Made by a program: the position numbers and the translations under genes. DNA of 64,000 bases from a virus (taxonomy: Duplodnaviria; Caudoviricetes), in the IMG/VR virus record IMGVR_UViG_3300046615_000208, positions 64,001-128,000 of that record; one strand, written 5' to 3'. The notes beneath the pieces are model-generated. The model ran no database searches and was not told the origin of the DNA. It worked only from the letters and a program-made list of their open reading frames with translations. Below, piece after piece: positions 20,969 to 43,470 of this stretch (positions are counted from its first letter, which is position 1; every line of letters starts with the position of its first letter).

Positions 20969-21256
20969 ATGAAGACAGACGGAACACCAGAGACCGAGTT
21001 CGAAGAGGCCATGCCGCTGCTCGCCGCTATCGTAGGGCAGAACGCACGTGACCTCCAGTGGACTAACGACCAACTGCTGGCAAGCAAGGAGCGACAGCTT
21101 CGCCAGATGCAACAGGACTACGTGAAGCTGTACGCGTCCATGCAGAAGGTGGCAGAACGTACCGACTCCGCCACTGCCTACAGCGCACTGGACAGGTTCT
21201 GGCACGTGAACGAAGATGCCAAGAAAGAACTTGCCAAACCGGATGATGTGTACTAG
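20969..21256 (+). CDS. coiled-coil hypothetical protein
   Basis: leaderless after TTGACA-17-TAGGCT. Confidence 0.7.
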   Translation: MKTDGTPETEFEEAMPLLAAIVGQNARDLQWTNDQLLASKERQLRQMQQDYVKLYASMQKVAERTDSATAYSALDRFWHVNEDAKKELAKPDDVY

Positions 21257-28878: not shown

Positions 28879-29004
28879 TTACAAAACACGCATAGCGGTC
28901 CCAGTTGACACTGGGGCCGCAGGTGTGTATACTGGTAGTAGATGGTAAGCCATTGATATCGGCCCTGTAGCGGGGTCGGGGGGAAGGCCCACCCTAAACG
29001 CGTT

Positions 29005-29067
29005 TCGGCCCATTATTTTTGGGGTCTCCCGGTGACCCTGCCCCGCTCCTTTGCGGCTCCGCTTCAT
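29005..29067 (-). ncRNA. candidate small RNA, ATGAAGC...GGG..ACYRG..GACCC family, copy 1
   Basis: follows TTGCAT promoter; ATGAAGC-N19-GCAGGGTCACCGGGAGACCCCAAAAATAATGGGCC. Confidence 0.5.
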
Positions 29068-29215
29068 ACCTTGATTCTTTCACATTTTTGCGCCGGATGC
29101 AAGTCCGGAGCGTTACAAGAAACGCATTGTGATTTGGGTTTGCATGTGGCGTACGTATGCCGTAGAGTATTCATATCGGGTTCATCCGGAACCCCTCAAG
29201 CCTTGGAGGTCTCCC

Positions 29216-29845
29216 GTGGGCGCACCCCGTATCGGTAACGTTCTGAACGTTCCCACTAAGCGTGTTTATGCCGCTAACCCTAACTCGGCCCGTATCGTGG
29301 ACGTATGGCGGCAGGCTACCGTCTCTGAGCTTGTGGAGGGTATGGAATGGTACAAAGACGCGCACGCGCTCGCCGTCCGTCTCTCCCCTGCTGATCCGGC
29401 GCAGGCCGCTGGCGTTATCGCCGCGCTGTCTCCCATGATGGCATGGGGACAGAATGTCAATCTCGCCGTACGTGCCTATGCGGACGGTAAAGCATCCGGT
29501 GCGCTCTTTAGCAACGTTGCTAAAGCCAACCGTATCCTGTCCGGTGAGCGTCCGGAGGACGTACTGGGCGGCGATAAAGTACGCGCATTCTATGGCGTGA
29601 TCGCTAACCCTACGTCGGATGCGGTTGTCGTTGACCGGCACGCGTTTGACATCGCTGTAGGCCGCGTGACTAACAATGAGACGCGGCAGGCACTGGGCCG
29701 TAAGGGTGTCTATGAATCATTCGCTAGCGCCTATGTGCGGGCAGCTAAGACCATTGCACGTGAGACTGGCATGGATGTATCCGCCAGTCAGGTGCAGGCC
29801 GTTACGTGGACGGTATGGCGCAGGCTCAAGGGACTGGCCGAGTAG
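29216..29845 (+). CDS. conserved phage protein (DUF7178-like, glycosylase-like C-terminal motifs)
   Basis: WYKDAH...AGVIAALSP...W..N...KVRAFY...VVVDRHA...VQAVTW; GGAGG RBS before GTG. Confidence 0.65.
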   Translation: MGAPRIGNVLNVPTKRVYAANPNSARIVDVWRQATVSELVEGMEWYKDAHALAVRLSPADPAQAAGVIAALSPMMAWGQNVNLAVRAYADGKASGALFSNVAKANRILSGERPEDVLGGDKVRAFYGVIANPTSDAVVVDRHAFDIAVGRVTNNETRQALGRKGVYESFASAYVRAAKTIARETGMDVSASQVQAVTWTVWRRLKGLAE

Positions 29846-29940
29846 TTACAAGAAACGCATAGGCGGCAGGACTAGACACCCTGCCGCTTATGCCATAGAC
29901 TTTATTCATCGGAACAATCCGAATCACTTAGGAGGCCACC

Positions 29941-30300
29941 ATGGCAAGCATCGCAGAAACTCTTCTCACTCGCACGGCACGCGACGGCGGCGTGACTGTC
30001 TCACTCGTTAGCGGCGACGTTGCCGCCCACACATCGGGCTTCTACGTCGGCGGACGCGTCACTGAGACGCTGGTGACGGACCCCTCAGACATCGGTGACT
30101 ACCTGTCTGCCGTCTCCACCATTACGCGGCGTGCTGGCGGCGTAGGCTACATCGGCGCATGGAAGAACCACGAAACGGGTATGGTGCACGTGGATGCATC
30201 GGATCACGTGGAAGACTTCGGTTCCGCCGTACGGATCGCGCAGGAGCGCGGCGAACTGGCGATTTGGGAGATCGCTGGCGGGACCGAATTCCGGCTCTAG
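29941..30300 (+). CDS. hypothetical protein (paralog of 41062..41493)
   Basis: GGVT...G(F/Y)YV...GxW...A...ER..LA(I/V)W. Confidence 0.8.
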   Translation: MASIAETLLTRTARDGGVTVSLVSGDVAAHTSGFYVGGRVTETLVTDPSDIGDYLSAVSTITRRAGGVGYIGAWKNHETGMVHVDASDHVEDFGSAVRIAQERGELAIWEIAGGTEFRL

Positions 30301-30398
30301 TTACAAGAAACGCATAGCGGGTTGGCTTGCGGACGGTAAGCCAACCTGCTAATCTTGAACCATAAGCAAGGCCCAACAAACCAAAAGGGAGTTACAAA

Positions 30399-30674
30399 AT
30401 GCGCGTTGTAAAAGAAACTGCACTCATTGGGGAAGCCATGTTTTTTCTGGCCGCTCGCTCCAAGGCTGTCGGCGGCGTTACGGCAGGCGTGGAGTCTGCC
30501 AGTAACGACAAGGTACCGGCCAAATTCCACGGCGAGTACGTGGTGACGGGCAACGGCGGACGTTGGGAGTGTACCAACCTTGTTCGGGCCGTGGTGACGC
30601 TTAGGAGCGTCCGGAATGCCGAGAACCTGTGGCAGATCAAGGACGGCAAGCGGACGCGTCTGGCGTACAGCTAG
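30399..30674 (+). CDS. hypothetical protein
   Basis: cassette gene. Confidence 0.7.
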   Translation: MRVVKETALIGEAMFFLAARSKAVGGVTAGVESASNDKVPAKFHGEYVVTGNGGRWECTNLVRAVVTLRSVRNAENLWQIKDGKRTRLAYS

Positions 30675-30759
30675 CGGTTACAAAAAACGCATACGGGCAG
30701 GACTAGACACCCTGCCCGTATGCGGGTAAGCTTGGACCATACCAACCGAAAGGAACACA

Positions 30760-30921
30760 ATGAAAGACTTTTCTGAGCTTATGGTTGCAGTTCTTGCCAT
30801 ATTCCCCGAAGCTACGGTGGAACAGGATCGATACGGGCAGATAGTGATCCACACTAACCTTACCGAAGACGGTAAGGGTGGTTTCGCACCGTTTCAGGTA
30901 CTGGAAGAGTACGGCGACTAA
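30760..30921 (+). CDS. small hypothetical protein
   Basis: AAAGGA RBS; stop overlaps motif. Confidence 0.6.
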   Translation: MKDFSELMVAVLAIFPEATVEQDRYGQIVIHTNLTEDGKGGFAPFQVLEEYGD

Positions 30922-31012
30922 CTACAAAAAACGCTTAGGGATAGGACTTGCATCTAGCGGTCCCATCCCCTAGAATTGAAGTATCAGCCAAACAACGGGA
31001 GAGGAACCCAAA

Positions 31013-31216
31013 ATGGATTGGATCACTGTAACACCGGCTTACGGACGCGACTACAAGAACCAGAAGGACGCGGCGGCAGACTGGAACGCCAATCTCGATT
31101 TCCGCGAAACATCCACCGGCCAGTACACAAACAAGGCCGACTGCCAGCGGATGGGAAAGAAGGTCATCATCCGCTACGGGAAGCTCATGAAGACCATGCA
31201 GGCCCCAATGAAGTAG
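31013..31216 (+). CDS. hypothetical protein
   Basis: TPAYGRDYK...ADW...DF; GAGGA RBS. Confidence 0.75.
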   Translation: MDWITVTPAYGRDYKNQKDAAADWNANLDFRETSTGQYTNKADCQRMGKKVIIRYGKLMKTMQAPMK

Positions 31217-31224
31217 CCGACTTA

Positions 31225-31260
31225 CAAAAGACGCTTAGCCGAAAGGCTAAGCGTCTTTTG
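31225..31260 (+). terminator. terminator hairpin built from the repeat motif
   Basis: CAAAAGACGCTTAGCC-GAAA-GGCTAAGCGTCTTTTG. Confidence 0.8.
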
Positions 31261-31437
31261 CGTGTTGCGGCCTAAAAAATAAGGCCAGACTCGGCCTTCC
31301 CCGCCACCCGTCTCAGGGCGGCTATCATGTGGGCCTTCCGGCTTAATACAAGCTTAGCACCTATCGGATGCGGATGCAAGCCTACAAAAAACGCATTGGG
31401 TGTTGCGGATGCGCTCGCATGCGTGTACGCTTAGGGT

Positions 31438-31620
31438 ATGGCAACCCAACTAGACATGGTACAGCGTATGTTCGCTAATGGCGGCGTGACCTGTCCCATC
31501 AGTGGCGACAGGATCGCTACGGCTAAGTCTGACCCTCCCAAGCTGTCAGAGATAGTTGACTGGGAAGCGGATTCATACTACCGTGGAGTAGGGCAACCCA
31601 AAGAGACAGTTAGGAGCTAG
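31438..31620 (+). CDS. hypothetical protein
   Basis: leaderless after TACGCT. Confidence 0.55.
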   Translation: MATQLDMVQRMFANGGVTCPISGDRIATAKSDPPKLSEIVDWEADSYYRGVGQPKETVRS

Positions 31621-31624
31621 GACA

Positions 31625-31909
31625 ATGGCAAACTACACGCGGACCCAGTTTACTCGACTCGGAGACTTCGGAGTCTCGGAGGAATGGCGTACGGAGACAC
31701 AGCCCAGCGCCACGCTGGCGTACGTGGATCACTACAACGGCGCTATCAGTACCGCGCAGGTTTTCGACCCCGCTACGGGTCACACGCGGACGTACCCGTT
31801 CCGTTCCAAGGATCGGGCAATGGCCATTGTGGAGCGTCACCTAGAACGCAATGGTTACAAAAAATGCGTAGAGTTCCGCGACTTGACAGGCAATGTCTCG
31901 GAGTACTAA
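31625..31909 (+). CDS. hypothetical protein
   Basis: AGGAG RBS. Confidence 0.7.
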   Translation: MANYTRTQFTRLGDFGVSEEWRTETQPSATLAYVDHYNGAISTAQVFDPATGHTRTYPFRSKDRAMAIVERHLERNGYKKCVEFRDLTGNVSEY

Positions 31910-31941
31910 GCTCTAAGTGACAACCACCTAGGAGGCGGACC

Positions 31942-32256
31942 ATGGCACGCAAACCACGCGCTAGCGAAGTAGCTACAAGAAACGCATTCTTGGATTATTT
32001 GGAGTCGTTGGAGACTCGCGCCACGGATGAGATTTGCGGCGTCTGGTACAACCGTCTGGGAGCCTCTAAGCATGCGGCAGGGGAATTGTGCCAGTGGGAT
32101 ATGTTCAGCCGCCCATGGTGCCACGTAGCGCGTTACGCGTCCGAAGAGCTTACGGAGTGGTTCGCTCGCAATGGCCGGATGACGTTTTCCGAGTGGCGCG
32201 AAAGTGAGCGCGAATTCATGCGGGAACAGTTTGACATGTACGCACAAAGCGCGTAG
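31942..32256 (+). CDS. hypothetical protein
   Basis: AGGAGG RBS; YASEEL..WF....RMTF.EW. Confidence 0.75.
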   Translation: MARKPRASEVATRNAFLDYLESLETRATDEICGVWYNRLGASKHAAGELCQWDMFSRPWCHVARYASEELTEWFARNGRMTFSEWRESEREFMREQFDMYAQSA

Positions 32257-32434
32257 TCTTTAGGTATCAGTTCAACCAACTTAGGAGTCGGTCATGGAAA
32301 AGGAAGAACCCAGCTACATGATGTTTGCAAGGGCAAACGTGCGGGACGGGTACCAAACGTCACCCCGAGTAGTCCGCGAACTACTCGCCCGAATTGACCG
32401 GCTCGAATCTACAAAAGACGCTTAGGAGAAGATC

Positions 32435-32617
32435 ATGGACACGAAAGAAATGGGCACATCGGACCTTGTACGGGAGTTCGCAGACATCAAGTGCGAAGGT
32501 GTACGGCGAGCGTTCAAGGGTGAACGCGTGACCAGCGCCGAACACTCTCGGCTCTGTGATGTTGTCCACGAACTGCGCGTCCGTGGTGTGCTTGACAGAG
32601 GCACACCTGCCCTGTAG
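32435..32617 (+). CDS. hypothetical protein
   Basis: AGGAG RBS. Confidence 0.65.
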   Translation: MDTKEMGTSDLVREFADIKCEGVRRAFKGERVTSAEHSRLCDVVHELRVRGVLDRGTPAL

Positions 32618-32658
32618 GCTCTAGGTAACAACCAAACACAACGGCTTAGGAGGCCACA

Positions 32659-33042
32659 GTGAACCACGATCTTACCACCGAAGAGGGACGCATCGAGGCG
32701 GCGAAGGAAGCAGGCCGTAACATCGCGGCCTACGAAATCCGTAGCGGGTACACGCTACTACGTGACTGGAACAAGGACGACGTACAGAACGCACGCGCAT
32801 TCTCTCACCTTGCCGCCGTTGGGTTTACCCGTGCGGGTACGCGGATGTTCTCGCAGACGTTCGTGGACGCCTACAGGGCTGAATTCATCCGCCTGCGGCT
32901 GGAACACCTGCGCGGAATTCTGAGGGCTGAGAGCATCAGCTACGGCGAACTGGTGGAGCTTCAGGGACTGGCTGAACACATCCAGCCGGGAGACGTGGAA
33001 CTGTTGGAGGCGGCAGGGGTTCCGGAGTTCCCGGAAGACTAA
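32659..33042 (+). CDS. hypothetical protein
   Basis: AGGAGG RBS. Confidence 0.75.
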   Translation: MNHDLTTEEGRIEAAKEAGRNIAAYEIRSGYTLLRDWNKDDVQNARAFSHLAAVGFTRAGTRMFSQTFVDAYRAEFIRLRLEHLRGILRAESISYGELVELQGLAEHIQPGDVELLEAAGVPEFPED

Positions 33043-33132
33043 GCGTTTTTTGTAAGGGAGCCGGTGTTGACAGCATCGGCTCCCTTGCACTAGATTAGGT
33101 ATTACAAACCAACTAGTCCACAGGAGGACATC

Positions 33133-33531
33133 ATGGCAAAGCTCATCAAGCTGGACAACCAGACCATCAACGAACTGTTGGAAAGCCTGAAGCTCGTTGC
33201 GGGACAGAGCGGAGACTGGCGCGGAGTGCTGGACGGCGCAATCGACACCGTGGAGTCGTGGGCTGAGGCCACGGACGTACCGGAGCGCGTGATCTTCCGG
33301 AAGTTCCCCCACAACGGGGAAGTGATCGCCCTGTTCCCCGACCAGTACAACGAGCGGAACGGTAACATCGGGAGCTACATGCACAACGGACAGCACGCGG
33401 AAACGGCTCCCGACTTCGGAGACACCAAGCCTGCGGAGGCGCACGAGTACTACCACCTACAGCAGGAACTCATCCGGCAGGGATACCACAACCTGCGGAT
33501 CGTGAAGCGCTTCGGCAAGCTGGGCAAATAG
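33133..33531 (+). CDS. hypothetical protein
   Basis: AGGAGG RBS; VIFRK..EVIALFP..SYMHNGQH. Confidence 0.8.
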   Translation: MAKLIKLDNQTINELLESLKLVAGQSGDWRGVLDGAIDTVESWAEATDVPERVIFRKFPHNGEVIALFPDQYNERNGNIGSYMHNGQHAETAPDFGDTKPAEAHEYYHLQQELIRQGYHNLRIVKRFGKLGK

Positions 33532-33624
33532 TTACAAAAAACGCATACAGTCTAGGATTTGTGTCCTAGGCCGTATGCGTGTAGTCTTTAGGTATCGGTT
33601 CATCAACGGCTTAGGAGGCCCACC

Positions 33625-34095
33625 ATGGTACACATGCTCACCATCAAGGATTTGGAAACCCGTTCGGACGGTACCTACTACACCGGACCACTGGAAGAGG
33701 CTAAGGCTTTCATCCACGACTGGATCGCCTCAACGGAGGCCCGATACAGCGACAAGAACGGGGAGGACAAGTACACCGTCCTGCTGGCCTACAGCGCTCC
33801 GAATGGCGAGATGGTGGAGACTGCCAACTACGACGAGTACGGGACCGGGAGGACCATGGAAGAGGCGTGGCGGTATGCTCTGGGCGCAGAGTTCGGTCCT
33901 GCCGACGACGAGTTCAACGCGTTCCCGCTGACACACGACAAGCGTGAAGCTGTCGCGGCCATGGTGGAACACCACTTCCCGGAACGTCTGGACACATTCT
34001 ACTCGGAGAGTACGGGACTGGCCGCAGTCGAGGACACGGATGGGAACATGTGGCGCGTATGGCCGGATGGGGACATTGAGGTCTACCGGCGCTAG
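33625..34095 (+). CDS. acidic hypothetical protein
   Basis: AGGAGG RBS; cassette. Confidence 0.8.
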   Translation: MVHMLTIKDLETRSDGTYYTGPLEEAKAFIHDWIASTEARYSDKNGEDKYTVLLAYSAPNGEMVETANYDEYGTGRTMEEAWRYALGAEFGPADDEFNAFPLTHDKREAVAAMVEHHFPERLDTFYSESTGLAAVEDTDGNMWRVWPDGDIEVYRR

Positions 34096-34189
34096 GTTAC
34101 AAAAAACGCATATCGGGTGGGATTTGCATCCTGCCCGATATGCGTGTAATCTTTAGGTACAAGGTAAGAACAACGGCTAGGAGGCCACC

Positions 34190-34435
34190 ATGAACAAGGC
34201 AAAAGCACTCAAGGTTCTGGCAGAGGTTGAAGAGCAGTTCAAGCTCTACATCGAAGCAGGGTACCCGCAACCGAACCTGCGGGACGCGGACCATGAGGAA
34301 CTGCCCAAGGGTTCATGGTCCATCGATTGGGAGGACGGTCCCGACGAATGGTGCTACGCAATGCCTGCGTCGAAGATTCCCGGTGTGTTCGTGGAACCGA
34401 TCATGTCGTTCATTCTCGGAGTCTACGACGACTAA
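34190..34435 (+). CDS. hypothetical protein
   Basis: AGGAGG RBS. Confidence 0.75.
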   Translation: MNKAKALKVLAEVEEQFKLYIEAGYPQPNLRDADHEELPKGSWSIDWEDGPDEWCYAMPASKIPGVFVEPIMSFILGVYDD

Positions 34436-34494
34436 GACACCCTGAGAGGCCCTAGGAACCGCCTAGGGTCTCTCACTACCTGAGAGGCTACACA

Positions 34495-34710
34495 ATGTCC
34501 GCAAAGACGCTTACAAAGGCCGTAGCGATACGGGAAGGCTTGGCAGACTTCCAAGAGCAGGAACGGGAGGCGTGGCGGGCCTATGAAGAGGCTAACGCGT
34601 GCCACTGTTGCTGTTGTACCGGAGAGTGCTCCTACGCGTTCCAAGAGTCCACACCGGAGGAACAGGAAGCGTGGATGCGGAACTACTGGGACTGGTGGGA
34701 GAACCGATAG
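34495..34710 (+). CDS. Cys-rich small protein
   Basis: CHCCCCTGEC. Confidence 0.65.
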   Translation: MSAKTLTKAVAIREGLADFQEQEREAWRAYEEANACHCCCCTGECSYAFQESTPEEQEAWMRNYWDWWENR

Positions 34711-34813
34711 TTACAAAAACCGCTTAGGCCGGTGGACTTGTGTCCATCGGCCATAGCGGGTAGAATCGTAGTATCGGGAACAAAGGGTTCCCCTGAAACC
34801 TTAGGAGGCTACA

Positions 34814-35047
34814 ATGGCAACACCACAGCATGCGGTCAAGGTAACACCGGCAGTAGTGGCACAGCGTTTTGCAATGGTGGAAAACGCGCCCACGGCTCCC
34901 ACAATCAACGGAAACCCTGCCAAGGTGTCCGGGTTCGCAAACCGGTTCGCGACGGTCACAGACAGCTTCACAGGCCTCTCTGCCGAGTGGTCTTGGGAGT
35001 CCGTCGAGCATGTAGTGAACAACCGGTTCGCGGCGTTCAAGGCATGA
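34814..35047 (+). CDS. hypothetical protein
   Basis: AGGAGG RBS. Confidence 0.75.
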   Translation: MATPQHAVKVTPAVVAQRFAMVENAPTAPTINGNPAKVSGFANRFATVTDSFTGLSAEWSWESVEHVVNNRFAAFKA

Positions 35048-35181
35048 TCACGGTCACGGTCACATTCAAGGATGGGTCAGTAGACAACTGGTCTACCACC
35101 TTGGATTACGCGGTACATCTCACCGGCCAGTTGCTCATCGATCCGGACATTGTGGACGTGAGGCTATCGCGTCACGGATAG
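35044..35181 (+). CDS. small hypothetical protein
   Basis: ATGA overlap; stop overlaps motif. Confidence 0.55.
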   Translation: MITVTVTFKDGSVDNWSTTLDYAVHLTGQLLIDPDIVDVRLSRHG

Positions 35182-35271
35182 TTACAAGAAACGCATAGCG
35201 GCTAGGACTTGCACCTAGCGGCTTTTGCGTGTAACCTTGAGGTATCAAGTCAAGCACTCAAGGGAGACACA

Positions 35272-35442
35272 ATGAACTTCGAAGCCGGAACCAAAGTCGA
35301 AATCCTCGAACGCGGCGCATGGGTAGGCCCGTTTGTCGTAACGCCTCATACGGCACGTACCGCCGATCATCTGGTACTCACCGGACCTAGCGGACTCTTC
35401 GAAGTCTACAACGACGCACCGTTCAACATCCGTAAGGCTTAG
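35272..35442 (+). CDS. small hypothetical protein
   Basis: AAGGGAG RBS; cassette. Confidence 0.7.
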   Translation: MNFEAGTKVEILERGAWVGPFVVTPHTARTADHLVLTGPSGLFEVYNDAPFNIRKA

Positions 35443-35539
35443 TTACAAAAACCGCTTAGGCCCTAGGACTTGCACCTAGGGCCTTAGGCGTGTAATGTTG
35501 TTCTTAGAGGGAGAGAGGGACTCTTCCGGATAGGGCACC

Positions 35540-35725
35540 ATGGAACTCTACAAGATCACCACAGCGGTCAAGGTCACTGAAAACCTCACGTGGGACCGCG
35601 TGTGTGACATTCTGGCAGTCTCCGACGATGGAGACGCGTGGGGCGCTCACGAGTGGCTCGAAGAGCGTGGAGAGTACCCGTTCCTGTCCGCCTACGGCGA
35701 CCAGATGATCCTGACTCGCATGTAG
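35540..35725 (+). CDS. hypothetical protein
   Basis: cassette gene. Confidence 0.7.
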   Translation: MELYKITTAVKVTENLTWDRVCDILAVSDDGDAWGAHEWLEERGEYPFLSAYGDQMILTRM

Positions 35726-35827
35726 GTTACAAAAACCGCTTAGGGAGTCGGACTTGCATCCGGCTCCCCTAGCGGGTAAGCTTTAGGTAATGGAGCAACC
35801 GGCTCCCGGAAGTCCTAGGAGGACACA

Positions 35828-36091
35828 ATGGGTTACATGGAAGAATCAGACCGCCTCGAAGAAGCAGCGAACAAGAACCCGCTCAAAGAAGGCGTAGTCG
35901 GAAGCAAGCTCGTTGCGTACTTCGAGAACCTTGACGGACGCGTAGCGGTCGATGCCGAGTCCATCGAACACGTGGGCGTGGCCCAGCACGACTACAAGAT
36001 CACCTTCGAGGGTGGACTCGTTCAGGCCTACCGCGTGACGTTCGCGGACGGCATGAGCTCCGAGATTCTGGACGCAACGCCGCTCAACTAG
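35828..36091 (+). CDS. hypothetical protein
   Basis: AGGAGG RBS; cassette. Confidence 0.75.
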   Translation: MGYMEESDRLEEAANKNPLKEGVVGSKLVAYFENLDGRVAVDAESIEHVGVAQHDYKITFEGGLVQAYRVTFADGMSSEILDATPLN

Positions 36092-36186
36092 TTACAAAAA
36101 CCGCTTAGGGTCCGGACTAGACATTCGGACCCTAAGCCGGTAGACTCATCACAACGGAACAATCCGGAAACCAAAAGGAGCAAGTC

Positions 36187-36474
36187 ATGAAGTCGGTAAT
36201 CACCAAGCTGGAAGTCTCGGAGCGTCTGCTGGGCGTGGATCGCTACGAACTGGAAGTCAAGGGCCAAAAGGCCCACAACACCATCGTGGAACTCCACACG
36301 GACATCAACACCGGAGACCGCCACGTCTTCGTCCAGACGCCGGTAAACGGCGGCCTGACGCCGTCCACGGCTGATGCAGTCGCTCGACGCCTCATCGACG
36401 GTGCACGGAAGTACGCGGGAAACCACGTGACACCCGCCAGCGTGGTACGGGTTGGACGCTACGCGGCCAGCTAG
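36187..36474 (+). CDS. hypothetical protein
   Basis: AAGGAG RBS; cassette. Confidence 0.75.
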   Translation: MKSVITKLEVSERLLGVDRYELEVKGQKAHNTIVELHTDINTGDRHVFVQTPVNGGLTPSTADAVARRLIDGARKYAGNHVTPASVVRVGRYAAS

Positions 36475-36568
36475 TTACAAAACACGCGTAGAGCCTCGGA
36501 CTTGTGTCTGAGGCTCTTTGCGTGTAAGCTCTAAGTATCGGAACAATCCGAAGACGAAAGGCAAGACA

Positions 36569-36826
36569 ATGAACATCAAGCTCATTCACAACATCGTGGA
36601 CATGACCCAGATGCACGGATTCGGCAACGATTTCTCGCTGGTCTACGGCTTCGATAACGGCACCAAGATGGCCGTATCGCGTAACCCCATGACAGGTGGA
36701 CACAAGGCCGGTTTCATGGCCGTCCTGCCCTACGACAAGGCCGGTAACCAGATTGACGAGCGTGCCGAGTCGTGGCTCACCCCGCAGGAAGTCGCGGAGA
36801 AGATGGAAATCCTCGCCAGCGAGTAG
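36569..36826 (+). CDS. hypothetical protein
   Basis: AAAGG RBS; cassette. Confidence 0.75.
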   Translation: MNIKLIHNIVDMTQMHGFGNDFSLVYGFDNGTKMAVSRNPMTGGHKAGFMAVLPYDKAGNQIDERAESWLTPQEVAEKMEILASE

Positions 36827-36909
36827 TTACAAGAAACGCGTAGGGCCTAAGTTGACTTCGGTCAGCTTAGGCCTTATGCTTGTAGTACACACCAACGAAA
36901 GAGGAAACC

Positions 36910-37116
36910 ATGGCTCGCTACTCCACTCCAGCAACTCGCGCCTACGCTCGTGACAAGGCCGAAATCATCGGCGCGGCTGAGCGCGTGATCTACGGCGAAA
37001 TCCTCGACTTTGTCCTGCGGGTAGGCAGGCACAAGGCTACGCCGTTCCTCGCCGTACTGGGCGGGTTCGCGTACATCATCTTTGGTCACGGGCTTGTGAA
37101 CTCCATAAACCTGTGA
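36910..37116 (+). CDS. small protein with C-terminal TM
   Basis: GAGGA RBS. Confidence 0.65.
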   Translation: MARYSTPATRAYARDKAEIIGAAERVIYGEILDFVLRVGRHKATPFLAVLGGFAYIIFGHGLVNSINL

Positions 37117-37393
37117 TACAATAAACTCACAGACATACACTGAAGCCTCCGGAGATGACCACCAAATCTCTCCGGAGGCTTCGCCAATTGTGGGATAGTT
37201 GGCTTACAAAAAACGCGTAGCGGATAGGTTTGCATTCCGGCGCAAAGGTGGTAAGCTTAGAACATGGAAGGGGAGGTTAGGAGCCTCCACCCGCCAGACT
37301 AAGAATCTGGGGGTTCGGGAAGTGATCGCCCACCGATCACCGGCAGGCCAGTCCGCAACTGGCCGTATAACTCAACAGTGAAAGGTGGACACC

Positions 37394-37603
37394 ATGGTAG
37401 AAGTTCCCATGGAAGAGGCTGACGTTCTGGAACAGGTCAAGGCCAAGACGGGAGCGGTAGACGCGAAGGTGTCTGGGAGGCCCACAAACTGGGTCTGGTC
37501 GGTCCTGCTGGCATTCCCGGATGGTCCGGACGCCTACACGTTCCAGACGCGTCTGGTGGACGTAGAAGGCCCTGAGATTCGGTTCGTCGGCTTCGACTTC
37601 TAG
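37394..37603 (+). CDS. hypothetical protein
   Basis: stop overlaps motif. Confidence 0.7.
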   Translation: MVEVPMEEADVLEQVKAKTGAVDAKVSGRPTNWVWSVLLAFPDGPDAYTFQTRLVDVEGPEIRFVGFDF

Positions 37604-37712
37604 TTACAAAAAGCGCATAGCCTGTCTTCGGACAGGCTATTTGCATTTGGGCGCAAAGGTGGTAAGCTTATTCCATAAGCAGTTCACAACTCCACAGAGA
37701 AAAGAGAGACCA

Positions 37713-37919
37713 GTGAAGGTTTTCTTCGAAGCACTTGTCGATGGACAGTACGTCAACCAGAAGCGCCTCGCGGATATCCCGGATGAGAAAGCTTACGCTA
37801 GGGCGGCTAAGGCCTACCCGAACGATCCGGACTACGTGGAGGAAATGCTCGACGGACGCGGCTACATCACCATCAAGGGCCACAACTGCCGGTTCACTTA
37901 CCAGCAGGACAGCCTCTAG
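37713..37919 (+). CDS. hypothetical protein
   Basis: cassette gene. Confidence 0.7.
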   Translation: MKVFFEALVDGQYVNQKRLADIPDEKAYARAAKAYPNDPDYVEEMLDGRGYITIKGHNCRFTYQQDSL

Positions 37920-38022
37920 TTACAAATAGCGCATAGGGCCTCTACGGAGGCCCTATTTGCATTTGGGCGCAAAGGTGGTATCGTTGAGTTATCGGCAAGG
38001 GTTGCCGGTGAGAGAGGGAACC

Positions 38023-38337
38023 ATGGACAAGTACACGACTGAAGCTCTGGAAGCTGCGAAGAACAGCACTAGCTCGATGAGCGCGGGGGATCGCAACGCC
38101 GCTCCCTACCTGCTCAAGCTGGACACTGTGGAGCAGCGTAAGCGTGCTGTAGGGGACGCGCACACTCGGATGAACCTCATGGGGTTCCGCTACTCCGAAG
38201 CTGTCTACCACTCCGTTAGTGACCTGCTGAAGAACATTGCCGCAGGGGAAGAGGACAAGCCACTCTATGGCGAAGCCACTGCGAAGAAGTACCGGGACGC
38301 GGAAAACGAACGCCGGAAGCTGGAACGCGGCTACTGA
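38023..38337 (+). CDS. hypothetical protein
   Basis: GAGGG RBS; last gene of the + arm. Confidence 0.75.
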   Translation: MDKYTTEALEAAKNSTSSMSAGDRNAAPYLLKLDTVEQRKRAVGDAHTRMNLMGFRYSEAVYHSVSDLLKNIAAGEEDKPLYGEATAKKYRDAENERRKLERGY

Positions 38338-38351
38338 TACAAAAAGCGCTT

Positions 38352-38382
38352 AGGCTCTCATCCTCCGGGGTGGGAGCCTTTT
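38352..38382 (+). terminator. intrinsic terminator ending the + arm
   Basis: AGGCTCTCATCC-TCCG-GGGTGGGAGCCT-TTT. Confidence 0.7.
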
Positions 38383-38607
38383 GCTTTGCCTGCGGGTGGC
38401 CCTCTGTGACGTTCTGGGAGCCTCTGAGGCTCGGGGTGGCACTCTCACCCACGCGGGCGATTCTAGGGCCTTAGACGGGCACGTAAGGCCTGCGGTAGGT
38501 CTACACGTGCTGTGCGACTCTGGGCGGCTGTTTAAGGGCCTAACTGGGCGCAGACGTACAAAGACCCCCAACCTTTCGGTTGAGGGCCTCTGTGGGGCTG
38601 TGAGGGC

Positions 38608-38871
38608 CTAGAACGGCGGTTCAAACTCTGGGAGGTAAGTCCGGAGTTCCGGAGCGGGAAGTTCGGGGACTACGTGACCGTAAGGGCAAGCGTTGTCGTA
38701 GTCGAGGTAGTCGTGCTCTTCGCAGTAGTAGGCCTGTTCATCCGCGAAGTGATCGACGTTGTCCGCCGCCATTGCTTCGCGCCACGCGGAGTCATCCCGG
38801 TTGTAGTCCTGCTCTTCCTGCCACTGTACCTGAGACATTTTTTCCTCTCGTGGCCGGTGTTTCCGGCTCAT
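38608..38871 (-). CDS. acidic hypothetical protein
   Basis: last gene of the - arm; promoter TTGCGC-17-TAAGCT. Confidence 0.7.
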   Translation of the reverse strand: MSRKHRPREEKMSQVQWQEEQDYNRDDSAWREAMAADNVDHFADEQAYYCEEHDYLDYDNACPYGHVVPELPAPELRTYLPEFEPPF

Positions 38872-38935
38872 GTACTGAGCTTAGCACGGCAAACAGAAAA
38901 CGCGCAACCCCGAAGGGTTACGCGTTTTTTGTAGG

Positions 38936-39169
38936 CTACAGATCGTTCCGGTGTTCGTAATCCGAAACCAGCTTAGCCTCGATAGCTTCGTCAAGCTCTT
39001 CCCGTGTCACGAACGGCTTGTTAGGGTGTTCGTGTGACTCCATGGCCTCGCACTTTTCGCAAGTCTCGTACAGGTCCGGGAGGTAGATTGCGGCAACCCA
39101 AGATTCTTCACCGGTAGCCTTCGTCCACTCGGCAGCGGCTTCGTTGAACGGGATGAGTGATGCGGACAT
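38936..39169 (-). CDS. hypothetical protein
   Basis: AAGGAG RBS. Confidence 0.75.
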   Translation of the reverse strand: MSASLIPFNEAAAEWTKATGEESWVAAIYLPDLYETCEKCEAMESHEHPNKPFVTREELDEAIEAKLVSDYEHRNDL

Positions 39170-39261
39170 TGGTTTCTCCTTGGTTGTTTTTGACCTTGTA
39201 CCTAAAGCATAGCACGGTTTGGTGGAGCGTGTCTAGTCGGGAGGCTGTGCGTTTTTTGTAA

Positions 39262-39312
39262 GTCCCATTTTTATTTTATGGGTCCTCCGGTTTCCCTGCT
39301 GGTGGGCTTCAT
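39262..39312 (-). ncRNA. candidate small RNA, copy 2
   Basis: TTGACA-17-TAGACT then ATGAAGCCCACCAGCAGGGAAACCGGAGGACCCATAAAATAAAAATGGGAC. Confidence 0.5.
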
Positions 39313-39404
39313 GGTTCAAGTCTAAGGCCTGTCGGCCTGAGTGTCAAGCCTACGGCAGACACAAAAGAGGGGAGCCTTTCGGCTCCCCTCTTATGCGTTT
39401 TTTG

Positions 39405-39662
39405 TTACCATGCGAAGTAGCTTGAGGTCCGCCAGCTACGGAGGATGGTGTAATCGGTAAGGCGTTCGGCCTGTTCCCACGTGGTGGGCTGTACAAGGCC
39501 CGTAGCGGGGTTCAGAATGGCTGGCTTGACCGCGTGTACGCCGATGAGGATTGCAGGCTCTCCTTCGAGCGTGAAGCGCTTTGCGGCGATTGCCTCGCGG
39601 CGTTCCATGCTCACGATGGTGAGCGGCTGAGTGGCGAGGATTCGAGCGACTGTGCGGAACAT
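39405..39662 (-). CDS. hypothetical protein
   Basis: AGGGAG RBS. Confidence 0.7.
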   Translation of the reverse strand: MFRTVARILATQPLTIVSMERREAIAAKRFTLEGEPAILIGVHAVKPAILNPATGLVQPTTWEQAERLTDYTILRSWRTSSYFAW

Positions 39663-39752
39663 TTTGACTCCCTGACTGGTGGCTTGCTGTTGGTACAAGC
39701 TTAGCATAGGTCCGGTGCTGTTGCCAACACCGAACCTATGCGTTTTTTGTAG

Positions 39753-39998
39753 CTAGTCGATGTCCACCGCGACACGTGCCAGCGATCCGGTACCGAAGTA
39801 GTCCACATTCAGCAGGTACTCCGCGCCATTCCAGCGAGCGCGTGCGCCGCTCCTGTAGCCGTTGTCGAGCATGTGATCAGCGATGGCCTCGCTGGATGCG
39901 TTCTCGATGGCGTAGGCCTTGCCACGGACGACGTAGCGGCTTCCGGCCACTCCGCGAACTGTGCGCTGGGTCTGGTTCTTCTTGATGGTCTTTCCCAT
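39753..39998 (-). CDS. hypothetical protein
   Basis: AAGGAG RBS. Confidence 0.75.
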   Translation of the reverse strand: MGKTIKKNQTQRTVRGVAGSRYVVRGKAYAIENASSEAIADHMLDNGYRSGARARWNGAEYLLNVDYFGTGSLARVAVDID

Positions 39999-40094
39999 TG
40001 TCTTTGTGCTCCTTGTGAAGTGTGTTGTTGAGTTGCCCTAGTTGGCATTCCCGCTTAGGTGATACTTGAGTGTACCACCTAAGCGAGCAAACCG

Positions 40095-40343
40095 CTAGGG
40101 GAGTTCCAGTAGCCAAGTGTCTGAGTAGACATTCTTTCGGATGATAACGGTATCATCCTTTGCCAGTTCTTCCAGCTTCCGGGAGTAGTTCCGGATGTTT
40201 TCCGGAGTCTCCGCTATGTCGTGGTAGGAGAGGACATTCTCTACCGTCTTCCGGATGAGCGTTGCGCGATCCTGTGAGTGGGAATCGTAGAATCCATCGT
40301 GCCATTCTTCGATGTACTGGAGGATGTTTGCTTCGCGTGACAT
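40095..40343 (-). CDS. hypothetical protein
   Basis: AAGGAG RBS. Confidence 0.75.
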   Translation of the reverse strand: MSREANILQYIEEWHDGFYDSHSQDRATLIRKTVENVLSYHDIAETPENIRNYSRKLEELAKDDTVIIRKNVYSDTWLLELP

Positions 40344-40433
40344 GTCCTGCTCCTTTGTTCTCGGCTTGTTCCGATAACTAGAGTCTACGCTAGTCCGGAG
40401 AGTTATGCAACCCTCCGGACTAAGCGTTTTTTG

Positions 40434-40625
40434 TTAGTCTTCGAGGTCTTCGATCTCTTCCGCCTCTGCGGGCTGGAATCCGTGCTGGTCTTCGAGTTCT
40501 TCGAGGGTGGTGTAGAAGAATCCACCGATCCCATCCGGAGTGATGAAGTACATGTCATCCTTGCGGATGTAGTAGGCCGTGTCCACGGCGAGTTCGGAAC
40601 GCGGGGTGATGGTTGCCTGTGCCAT
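40434..40625 (-). CDS. very acidic small protein
   Basis: AAAGGA RBS; E/D-rich C-terminus. Confidence 0.75.
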   Translation of the reverse strand: MAQATITPRSELAVDTAYYIRKDDMYFITPDGIGGFFYTTLEELEDQHGFQPAEAEEIEDLED

Positions 40626-40713
40626 TGTTTTTTCCTTTGTTTGAGTGGCTATGTATCTAGCTTAGCCTAGGTGAGGGAGTCTTGCAACTCCCCCACCTAA
40701 GCGTTTTTTGTAA

Positions 40714-40968
40714 CTACGCTTTACCGTAGTGGCCACCATCCGGCAGGCCAGCTGTGCAGGGGTAGAAGTGGATCGGCCACGCGGCATCTTCGCCACCCTC
40801 AGCGAGGAAATCCGAGTTGTAGTCGAGCCACAGATCACGCTTGGAGTCGAACTCGTCGTTAAACCAGTCGTGGCCTTTGGTGGCCTTTGCAACGTCTGCA
40901 CAGTCTGCGCGGTGGACGCTGACGTCGTAGTCGTTGTTCCCGTTGCCGTTAATGGTTACCAGCTTCAT
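40714..40968 (-). CDS. hypothetical protein
   Basis: AAGGAG RBS; VHRADCADV. Confidence 0.75.
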   Translation of the reverse strand: MKLVTINGNGNNDYDVSVHRADCADVAKATKGHDWFNDEFDSKRDLWLDYNSDFLAEGGEDAAWPIHFYPCTAGLPDGGHYGKA

Positions 40969-41061
40969 GATGACTCCTTAGGTCTCGGCTTGTTCCGATA
41001 TGACTAGCGTACACGCAAAAGGTCCGAGATACAAATCTCGGACCCTATGCGTTTTTTGTAG

Positions 41062-41493
41062 CTAGCCGATGTAGATGCTCACCTTGTTGGCAACATCCCA
41101 GACGGCGAGTTGTTCGCGTTCCTTGGCAACGAGAATGGCCATCTCGTAGTCTTCGAACCACTCTGAGGCCTCTGCGTAGACGACTCCGGACTCTACCCAT
41201 GTTCCCATGAGTCCGAGGCCGTCAGTGGCTGCGTAAGCCATTCCCAGAGCGAATTGGTAGTCTCGTGTGTCCGAGTCTGCGAGATTGAACATGTGGGGCT
41301 TGTGGAGGCCTGACACGTAGTAGCCGTGCGTGTGCGTGGCGATTGCCATTGTGGGGCTGGAGAGGTCCAGCGTTACGCCACCGTTGGCGTGTGTCTCACG
41401 TGAGAGGGTGACGCCGCGAATCTGACCATAGGTCCGGAGCTTCGGGGTGACGCCGGAGTTTTCGTTACGCATGGTTTCGACGGTGACAGTCAT
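41062..41493 (-). CDS. hypothetical protein (paralog of 29941..30300)
   Basis: AGGAGG RBS; shared motifs. Confidence 0.8.
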   Translation of the reverse strand: MTVTVETMRNENSGVTPKLRTYGQIRGVTLSRETHANGGVTLDLSSPTMAIATHTHGYYVSGLHKPHMFNLADSDTRDYQFALGMAYAATDGLGLMGTWVESGVVYAEASEWFEDYEMAILVAKEREQLAVWDVANKVSIYIG

Positions 41494-41628
41494 TGTTTCC
41501 TCCTGAGTGGATCGGATGGTTTGATATGAAGAGCATACCACTACTTTAGGAGATGATGCAAACTACGCGATTGTTACGTGCGTTTTTTGTAAGTTGCGTG
41601 TGAGCGCGGATGCGTGTATGCTCAGAGT

Positions 41629-41682
41629 ATGAAGCAACCGATTGAAGCTGGGTCACTGGAGGACCCCTAAAATAAGTGGGCC
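41629..41682 (+). ncRNA. candidate small RNA, copy 3
   Basis: TTGCGT-17-TATGCT then ATGAAGCAACCGATTGAAGCTGGGTCACTGGAGGACCCCTAAAATAAGTGGGCC. Confidence 0.5.
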
Positions 41683-41782
41683 GGAAAGTAGGCATCACTC
41701 CATTCTCTCATAGTTTTTGGGTGGTTGTCAAGCTGCCGGAGGGCAAAGAAAAGGGGAGCCTTTCGGCTCCCCTTCCCTCACC

Positions 41783-42094
41783 TTAGAGGGTTTCGTACTT
41801 GCCGTCCGCCTGACGGTACTTGATGTACGTGCAACCCGCGTCATGCGTGGCCCAGTCGAGCGGCTGGAACGCGTCCTCCGAGTCCGCGTCACCATAGAAG
41901 TAGCCGGTGAAGTAGCAGTTGTCGTCGTCGTCGTACAGCTTGAAGTGGGTGCCCTTGCCAGCCTTGCCAGCCTTGATCGCGTCACGCTCTGCGGGGCTGG
42001 TGCCGTACACGCGGGGCTTCTCCAGCTTCTCCAGCTTCTCACCGAAGTTCGGGTTGTTCTCTTCGATTGCCGAGTGAGTGATCGTGAATCCCAT
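41783..42094 (-). CDS. hypothetical protein
   Basis: AGGAG RBS; FKLYDDDDNCYF.G...FQPLDWA..DAGCT.I.Y. Confidence 0.8.
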   Translation of the reverse strand: MGFTITHSAIEENNPNFGEKLEKLEKPRVYGTSPAERDAIKAGKAGKGTHFKLYDDDDNCYFTGYFYGDADSEDAFQPLDWATHDAGCTYIKYRQADGKYETL

Positions 42095-42199
42095 TGTGAC
42101 TCCTAAGTCCGTTTCTCAAGCTCCCTGCTTGATGACTTAAGTCTCTCATACATTCCGGACGGATGCAACTCCATTCTGACAATGCGTTTTTTGTAAGTG

Positions 42200-42258
42200 T
42201 GGTTTGTGGAGGTTGGAGTTTTTGGGGTCCTCTGGTTTCCCTGCCTCCGGAGCTTCAT
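42200..42258 (-). ncRNA. candidate small RNA, copy 4
   Basis: TTGACT-17-TAGACT then ATGAAGCTCCGGAGGCAGGGAAACCAGAGGACCCCAAAAA. Confidence 0.5.
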
Positions 42259-42360
42259 AGTATGAGTCTAAGGCCTATTCGGCGCAGAGTCAAGCGGCGC
42301 TGTGTGGCGTTCTAAGCCACGCAAAAGGACCCTACCGTAGTAGGGTCCTAGTGGCCGGTG

Positions 42361-43214: not shown

Positions 43215-43470
43215 CCTCTCATGAGTTTGTCTCATGTGTCAACTCGAAACACTAAGCGTCTTTTGTAAAGTTTGTGCCTTGTTTCTACACACGCGCACAT
43301 GTGCACGCGATTGTCCTCTATTGTTTGGTGTTTGTCAACATGCTGGCCCTAAGAGTTTTTTGTAACCCTCGTGTGGGAGTGCGTGATTATCCTCTAGTTT
43401 TTTGGGATTGTCAATGGGTTTGGCAAAGAGTTTTTTGTAACCTCGTGCGCGTGAAGCGTTTTTTGTAACG
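43215..43470 (-). promoter_or_regulatory. three tandem leftward promoters, each preceded by the motif
   Basis: TTGACA on the - strand near 43238-43243, 43334-43339 and 43409-43414, each 13-14 bp after a motif copy. Confidence 0.7.

Follow-up and report, generated by a model that had tools for sequence, protein, structure and literature searches.

Four A modules in a cassette array

The window analysed here is a stretch of 64,000 nucleotides (bases 64001-128000 of the 171,752-bp virus record IMGVR_UViG_3300046615_000208, which is ~99% complete). Our subject is a short repeated element, the A module, which occurs as units 1 to 4 inside an array of small gene cassettes. A sequence-only reading of the window had described these units as a four-copy family of promoter-driven short non-coding RNAs, and the family is borne out: the pattern ATGAAGC-N(6-25)-GGGWMACYRGRRGACCC matches exactly at all four positions (29067-, 39312-, 41629+ and 42258-), against an expectation of 0.00 matches in 100 shuffles, and the core has only these four copies in the entire genome. 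Together with its relatives in other phages, described below, the A family is previously undescribed, real, conserved and phage-specific. The units and the signals next to them are:

29007..29067, minus strand: unit 1, A module of type 1 (pattern match; profile score 47.9 bits)
29074..29102, minus strand: promoter of unit 1, TTGCAT-17-AAGAAT (read from the sequence; same geometry in aligned copies)
39262..39312, minus strand: unit 2, A module, solitary and co-directional (pattern and profile)
39319..39347, minus strand: promoter of unit 2, TTGACA-17-TAGACT (consensus scan)
39365..39392, minus strand: strong intrinsic terminator, immediately ahead of the promoter of unit 2
41594..41622, plus strand: promoter of unit 3, TTGCGT-17-TATGCT (read from the sequence and compared with relatives)
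41629..41685, plus strand: unit 3, A module of type 3, downstream antisense member of a bracket with unit 4 (pattern and profile)
42215..42258, minus strand: unit 4, A module of type 4, upstream sense member of the same bracket (pattern and profile)
42265..42293, minus strand: promoter of unit 4, TTGACT-17-TAGACT (consensus scan)
near 42328-42349: terminator hairpin ahead of the unit 4 promoter (read from the sequence)

All four units share the promoter geometry TTGnnn-17-nAnnnT, 6 nt, ATG, which is of the sigma-70/sigma-A type and was read from the sequence; each unit starts 6 nt after its -10 box, as had been claimed. The promoters of units 2 and 4 are also returned independently by a promoter consensus scan, together with one promoter facing unit 1 and one facing unit 3. 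Unit 1 has the order ATGAAGC, an insert hairpin CCGC/GCGG, the core, AAAAATAA and TGGGCC. The tail AAAATAA-N-TGGG(C/A)C, reported earlier as truncated in the fourth copy, is indeed absent from unit 4. Open reading frames (ORFs) from the ATG have 62 codons in unit 1, 13 in units 2 and 3 and 51 in unit 4, and the core is read in three frames; the conserved block does lie in differing frames, as the earlier reading held, but two copies and not one stop after 13 codons. Units 2 and 4 have a strong terminator upstream and none of their own, and are predicted to read into the next gene. Downstream of unit 2, with no terminator in between, are a cassette motif (39248-39261), a promoter and the gene at 38936-39169.

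The array that holds the four units is marked by ~60 copies of the cassette motif TTACAAAAAACGCA across window positions 16673-43468, on the plus strand until 38 kb and on the minus strand from 38.9 kb. After each copy come a sigma-70-like promoter (TTGACA/TTGCAT, 17 nt, TAAGCT/TAGACT) and then one small gene. Leaderless genes are common among these, the ATG lying 6 nt past the -10 box in the same geometry as in the four units. Ordinary cassettes are almost all co-directional with their own arm; units 1 and 3, judged by the orientation of TTACAAAAAACGCA, are antisense to theirs, in agreement with the two antisense copies noted before. We take the host to be an actinobacterium because the portal protein is 54-58% identical to those of the Arthrobacter globiformis phages Racecar, Mimi, Talia1610 and Atuin and ~42% identical to the portals of large Microbacterium phages, and because PurZ-like and RIIA-like proteins are encoded in the genome.

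Conservation from the predicted start site onwards

We gathered 47 distinct copies of the A module by pattern scanning of IMG/VR and metagenomes and then with a sequence profile (R1); they come from at least 15 related phage contigs or genomes, including the Arthrobacter phages Racecar and Mimi, and up to nine of them lie in one 13.8-kb contig. Racecar and Mimi each have two module loci, one of which faces B (described below), and these loci are repeated in the terminal repeats. Among the genomes scanned, those of Atuin, the Microbacterium phages Cece and A3Wally and phage DSL-LC01 have no member of the family. In the nearest relative, G001 (82-87% nucleotide identity), all four units are syntenic with those of the window. 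In more distant phages, similarity to the window is essentially confined to the A units (94-95% over 43-50 nt) and the B elements; their flanking genes are at most 69% identical, the shared DUF7178 gene being 69% identical.

Conservation begins sharply at the predicted start site. When eight copies of type 3 and eight of type 4, drawn from different contigs, are compared, pairwise identity averages 0.46-0.47 in the interval -50..-1 and 0.86-0.88 in the interval +1..+40; the upstream value represents little beyond the promoter hexamers, and the promoter spacers are unconserved. The first 24 nt of type 3 are identical in 8 contigs, as are the first 27-33 nt of type 4 in 8 contigs. In each copy inspected, a promoter precedes the ATG and its -10 box ends 6 nt short of it; position -11 is A and position -7 is T in the 41 copies defined by regular expression. 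All 47 copies have the same orientation with respect to the promoter, with the core promoter-proximal (+14 to +35), and the 5' ATG is found in all copies except one, the B-facing copy in Racecar (copy a). The core keeps a purine tract (GGAGG, AGAGG, GGGAG or AGGAG), followed by C-rich and A-rich runs; a U-tract takes the place of the A-tract in copies from three relatives. The core variant GCTGCC is present in different subtypes, and paralogues within one genome keep distinct subtypes.

A 5' AUG in nearly every copy could suggest leaderless micro-protein genes, or regulatory upstream ORFs with functional peptides. An AUG or GUG at +1, as expected of leaderless small proteins, is present in 46/47 copies, and about two-thirds of the first 14 copies read the core as ..G(N/H)(Q/R)(R/E)TPK.. 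in one frame. Across the family, ORFs from the ATG have 8-62 codons and use three frames, and one relative (G003 22893) has a stop inside the core. Third codon positions are identical between copies, with no synonymous changes despite the saturated divergence of neighbouring genes. Because third positions are identical, stops differ and three reading frames are used, constraint on a peptide is excluded. No conserved peptide was found among the family copies, in which ORF length, frame and sequence all vary, and we consider this explanation, already largely refuted, to be very improbable. The earlier proposal of promoter-driven units conserved at the nucleotide level agrees with these results, since the boundary lies exactly at the predicted start, stops and frames vary, and synonymous-type variation is lacking. 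Two further coding arrangements were rejected. A Shine-Dalgarno (SD) sequence with the start codon of a downstream small ORF was considered, in which an AUG/GUG past AAAATAA lies 12-15 nt from the purine tract, and this codon is unconserved in relatives. Programmed frameshifting, suggested by a likeness to the SD-plus-A-run of dnaX, was dropped because there is no conserved downstream frame.

Leaderless translation in mycobacteria has a 5' ATG or GTG as its necessary and sufficient condition (PMC4633059). This rule, together with the actinobacterial host, suggests that the 5'-terminal AUG of the A module should load ribosomes, with no peptide being selected. The modules resemble actinobacterial leaderless short ORFs (Shell et al. 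2015, PMC4633059) in having AUG at +1, 6-7 nt past the -10 box, and, in units 2 and 4, a short ORF upstream of an annotated gene. They differ from them in that the nucleotides are invariant while the peptide is unconserved, and in that half of the copies run antisense, with no gene downstream.

The sequence-only reading had also proposed that GGGTC/GACCC and CCC/GGG can pair alternately. Across 22 copies, pairing in the GGGTC/GACCC helix amounts to 69% of cells, a value equal to that of shuffles, and the helix is unsupported because GGGTC alternates with GGGAA while GACCC stays constant. For the CCC/GGG hairpin the advantage over shuffles is marginal (mean stem 3.7 bp vs 3.1 bp), and selection for alternate pairing was not confirmed. 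A CUGG-GNNA-CCAG tetraloop hairpin is paired in 79.5% of cells, again as in shuffles, with no double changes; by this test the modules do not have the boxB-like hairpin with compensatory changes of lambda-type nut/put antitermination. RNAalifold gave only -2.7 kcal/mol and no covariation, a scan of all column pairs in the 47 copies found no Watson-Crick covariation, and single-sequence folds of the four window units had z-scores of +0.5 to -0.5, no better than shuffles. The sole structural hint is the variable insert between ATGAAGC and GC(A/T)GGG, which forms a hairpin with six distinct stems (types 1, 5 and Racecar copy a). Through these inserts the distance from promoter to core varies by up to 16 nt. 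Insert hairpins with six distinct stems therefore point to selection at the RNA level.

The same observations bear on a DNA-level operator, in which a phage or host protein would bind the double-stranded core downstream of promoters as a roadblock or shut-off site. Such a site would be consistent with a conserved sequence that has no RNA structure and with a core that is always promoter-proximal, and the whole-tract A-to-T swaps in three copies would retain bent or easily melted DNA. It is, however, difficult to reconcile with a promoter-core spacing that varies as described, and with the fixed orientation in every copy; the core has no dyad symmetry, and the invariant first 7 transcribed nt would be unexplained. 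We therefore regard an operator as quite unlikely. The case for a functional transcript, and not only functional DNA, is made by the sharp boundary at +1, the obligatory promoter, the constant orientation and the hairpins in the inserts.

If the transcript is functional, it might act in trans. According to this alternative, which is close to the decoys and ribosome sponges suggested earlier, the 45-nt conserved RNA would sequester a protein of the host or phage, or ribosomes by way of the 5' AUG and the SD-like tract, with its genomic position being secondary. Sequence-specific conservation without structure would suit a platform for binding a protein or ribosomes, several promoter-driven copies are found per genome (as many as the nine in 13.8 kb), and the U-tract that replaces the A-tract in three relatives could yield short terminated RNAs. 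Searches for a counterpart in the host or among known families offer no support for it. Rfam gave 0 matches at gathering score in the whole window, and for 28.5-42.5 kb at E<=5 only one chance STnc250 match elsewhere, so that the comparison with Rfam proposed in the earlier reading yielded no family. Megablast against isolate phages gave no match, and nothing relevant was found in the literature on actinophage small RNAs (sRNAs). For the suggested comparison with repeats of clustered regularly interspaced short palindromic repeat (CRISPR) arrays, the core gave 96 single scattered matches in 596 Gb of genomes, none in arrays and some inside purL-like coding sequence, so that the resemblance to arrayed host repeats expected of an RNA anti-CRISPR or solitary repeat was not seen. 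Neither a copy nor an antisense target of the core occurs in 201 genomes from the order of a Curtobacterium genome, and neither was found for the type-3 5' segment in 61 genomes from that order. As to a type III antitoxin mimic, the copies are single and dispersed, and neither tandem ToxI-like repeats of ~34-45 nt nor a toxN-adjacent host array was found. Complementarity of A or B to the actinobacterial 16S-23S-5S operon is not above that of shuffles. Most copies, moreover, have no terminator at all, and a freely acting decoy would leave the position-specific subtypes and the paired architecture described below unexplained; we consider it unlikely.

Brackets, variable cargo and the structured RNA B

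Key context missed by the first reading is that most family members face another unit. By promoter prediction, 31/47 copies face another transcription unit and the other 16 are co-directional. The facing classes comprise ten inward brackets (518-835 bp), five face-to-face pairs (104-110 bp start to start), 8 copies facing B and 3 facing the 3' ends of genes; unit 2 is one of six solitary co-directional copies. The interesting part of our finding is this architecture, namely inward-facing pairs, variable cargo and a module antisense to a structured sRNA. A reading of the face-to-face A/A' pairs as 'empty slots' was not established; in L006, L007 and L009 the A/A' pair lies upstream of an X-like gene and not at an orthologous empty site.

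In the window, units 4 and 3 point inward around one gene, X (41783-42094). The bracket has the order unit 4, cassette motif, promoter, conserved leader, X, terminator hairpin, facing promoter (C) and unit 3, and the features between the two units are:

41695..41731, minus strand: mini-unit C, TTGACA-18-GAGAAT with its start at ATGCC (41695), facing unit 3 (consensus scan)
41753..41772: hairpin terminator between the cargo gene and unit 3 (read from the sequence)
41783..42094, minus strand: cargo gene X, 103 aa, lying between units 4 and 3
42095..42133, minus strand: 5' leader of the cargo slot (AUCAAGCAGGGAGCUUGAG...UUAGGAG), conserved among relatives

The same frame, with a plus-strand module on the left and a minus-strand module on the right at the distance given above, is found in ten contigs. 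Mini-unit C is kept in G001, G003 and L198, and equivalent terminator hairpins were found in the other brackets. The leader consists of a hairpin, CAAGC-AGGGA-GCUUG, and a UUAGGAG ribosome-binding site, and it precedes at least four cargo genes that are unrelated to one another and come from different phages. It begins with AUCAAGC, which follows a TGAnnn discriminator and resembles the start of the A module, AUGAAGC. The cargo belongs to at least five unrelated families (the X family, a 91-aa family, an 86-aa singleton, a 96-aa singleton and a DUF6011 protein), none of which was related to another in BLASTP among the cargo families. Cargo X (HFKLYDDD...PLDWA...GCTYIKYR) is much better conserved than is usual for the product of an early gene (27 clusters, 53-89% identity). 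Its AlphaFold model is confident (predicted local distance difference test score, pLDDT, 86) and shows an alpha/beta domain; X belongs to a PHROG that has no assigned function, and it has no match in Pfam and no fold match in the PDB.

Unrelated cargo between the same conserved flanks in different phages also raises the possibility that the modules are kept mainly as homology arms for the shuffling of early accessory genes between co-infecting phages. There is a precedent in the promoter-early stem-loop (PeSL) cassettes of T4-type phages, in which the conserved part is a promoter and a terminator stem-loop (PMC2839356, PMC4122927). Like PeSLs (Arbiol et al. 2010, PMC2839356; Comeau et al. 2014, PMC4122927), the A modules are short and multi-copy, have strong early promoters of sigma-70 type at each copy, lie in hyperplastic regions of small genes annotated without function, and flank genes that are replaced between related phages, as the cargo families illustrate. 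They differ from PeSLs in that promoter spacers are unconserved and the conserved part is the first 35-55 transcribed nt, which has no stem-loop; a conserved stem-loop terminator was not found in the repeat, the terminators of A modules lying outside it. A modules also form inward-facing inverted pairs, and their host is Gram-positive and high-GC and uses leaderless translation. Nucleotide-level identity with neither a structural nor a coding signal, the hyperplastic setting with its ~60 promoter cassettes, the core variant GCTGCC in different subtypes and the PeSL precedent (PMC2839356) would all fit homology arms. Yet homology arms alone predict neither the exact +1 boundary next to unconserved promoter spacers in every copy nor the invariant 5' AUG. 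The leader and terminator already give homology beside the cargo, and paralogues within a genome stay distinct subtypes and are not homogenised. We think it improbable that recombination is the main reason for which the modules are kept.

Unit 1 faces a different kind of partner, the RNA B, of which the window has two copies:

28905..28933, plus strand: promoter of sRNA B-beta, TTGACA-17-TATACT, convergent on unit 1 (consensus scan)
28940..29020, plus strand: sRNA B-beta (alignment and covariation)
31272..31379, minus strand: sRNA B-alpha, stand-alone paralogue, with the promoter TTGCAT-17-TAAGCT at 31351-31379 and a start near 31344

B-beta consists of a P1 hairpin AUGG-UAAG-CCAU, a P2 helix (28959-28965/28973-28979), a G-rich tract and a U-tract; B-alpha has its terminator at 31281-31298, followed by a U-tract. 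We found 13 B copies in nine phages, including Racecar, with two paralogous types per phage, each with its own promoter. The P2 helix is 100% paired, with 3 compensatory pairs and an invariant G.U, which 0/500 shuffles reach. P1 often has a GNRA loop, and a single-stranded G-rich stretch, GGGGGGAAGG, and a terminator complete the element. The B strand is the RNA strand because the wobble pairs would become A.C mismatches on the opposite strand. B has no Rfam match, and only 5 chance matches in bacterial genomes. The sequence AAAAATAA of unit 1 is the complement of the U-tract of B's terminator, and the predicted transcript of unit 1 runs on antisense through all of B-beta. Orthologues of unit 1 in G001, G003, L011, L190, L191, L202 and Racecar likewise face B. 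Judged by covariation and by these convergent promoters, B is a new structured sRNA family with a predicted dedicated antisense partner.

Two observations concern B-like sequences elsewhere. In Racecar (MN234206.2 10692-10844; L018 1486-1638), annotated gene 22 (hypothetical, 153 nt) overlaps the B sRNA and the A module, and is probably not a protein gene. A B-like sequence downstream of the modules of two relatives proved to be the GIGPxC motif of DUF6011 genes and not B.

Convergent RNAs are known from type I toxin-antitoxin loci such as par of pAD1 and txpA/RatA. Unit 1 and B resemble such loci in being small convergent units that overlap at their 3' ends, and differ from them in that neither strand has a hydrophobic toxin ORF and B has no conserved ORF; with no small conserved hydrophobic toxin ORF on either strand, the pair does not qualify as a locus of this type. 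Control by cis-antisense RNAs or convergent promoters is also known, as in lambda OOP/cII, P22 sar/ant, coliphage 186 pR/pL and pCF10 prgQ/prgX. The likeness here is in the face-to-face promoters 100-800 bp apart and the overlapping sense and antisense transcripts, which by promoter prediction apply to the 31 facing copies; the overlap of unit 1 takes in all of B, and that of unit 3 takes in the 3' flank of the cargo unit. Those systems are, however, single locus-specific pairs, whereas the A module is portable and is found at many loci with unrelated targets.

The surrounding array has some features of its own. The motif TTACAAAAAACGCA is usually immediately 3' of a TAG stop codon and 26-29 bp ahead of the -35 box, which occupies the loop of an inverted repeat; this position fits an UP-element or factor site. 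Relatives carry the variants TTACAAAAATTGA and TTGCAAAAATTGCAA. A 5'-terminal hairpin, AUCGGAACAAUCCGA, recurs at the predicted +1 of many cassette mRNAs (e.g. 29905-29922, 36535-36552 and 40360-40380) and may stabilise the 5' end. A gene-free ~210 bp (window 43255-43468, minus strand) at the outer end of the minus arm holds four motif copies and promoter-like boxes. A leaderless 95-aa gene at 20969-21256 (plus strand) begins ATGAAGACAGACGGAACACCAGAGACC and has a loose likeness to the A module, which is probably due to chance because the profile search gave no score. Outside the window, G000 211-1674 encodes a PurZ-like 2-aminoadenylosuccinate synthetase (phrog_1211, E=9e-68), and this phage may have 2-aminoadenine DNA.

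A proposed role for the A modules

We tentatively favour the reading that the A modules are portable leaderless 5' modules that set up sense and antisense transcription around accessory-gene slots, and that they possibly also act as recombination anchors. Host RNA polymerase with sigma-A/sigma-70 would start exactly at the A of ATGAAGC. The first 35-55 nt would form an unstructured RNA with the 5' AUG, the variable insert, GC(A/U)GGG..AC, the purine SD-like tract, a C-run and an A-run, and this segment would be the conserved functional part, the sequence beyond it being variable. Placed at the borders of small early transcription units, the modules would then serve as portable leaders that act in cis. 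The majority would fire toward another unit: around the gene at 41783-42094 unit 4 would read in the sense and unit 3 in the antisense direction, and the transcript of unit 1 would read antisense through the structured sRNA B. Convergent transcription and sense/antisense overlap could in this way provide generic, cargo-independent control of early genes and sRNAs, and ribosomes at the 5' AUG might shield the non-coding transcript against Rho and against RNases that depend on the 5' end. What we infer here is that the modules are transcribed, load ribosomes and have a regulatory effect. We prefer a cis-acting portable 5' module to a free decoy because the copies have no terminators, their subtypes are position-specific and their placement is paired and mostly convergent. 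The conserved flanks may in addition serve as homology arms for cargo exchange between related phages; such a second role as recombination anchors, as in PeSLs (PMC2839356), is plausible because the cargo is interchangeable.

Several points weigh against this proposal. The start sites and RNA ends on which it depends are predictions. Convergent transcription alone would not explain a structureless conserved 25-50 nt, which implies a sequence-specific partner (a protein, the ribosome or a nucleic acid), and every model is weakest on what reads this invariant primary sequence. The match of the SD-like tract to the anti-SD extends over only 4-5 nt, and GCUCC of type 4 could pair with the SD of the cargo, but without covariation. 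The 16 co-directional copies, unit 2 among them, face nothing, and ribosome loading is not universal, because Racecar copy a has no 5' AUG.

More speculatively, and with considerable doubt, inverted A modules together with the leader and terminator may constitute a 'plug-and-play' accessory-gene slot of a clade of large actinophages, which would combine cargo-independent control with sites of cargo exchange. The two modules would be leaderless RNAs that engage ribosomes, and their invariant 5' RNA would be read by a sequence-specific partner, possibly encoded by the phage. If this is true, the slot would be a kind of cassette system that is neither a PeSL nor an integron. Large actinophages have long arrays of tiny early genes, and the A module marks the borders of such genes. 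A frame that holds interchangeable unrelated genes would offer a handle for finding accessory or anti-host genes in metagenomic phage contigs, where the space between inward-facing modules is the place to look, and Racecar with Arthrobacter globiformis would be a tractable system for antisense control and leaderless translation during infection.

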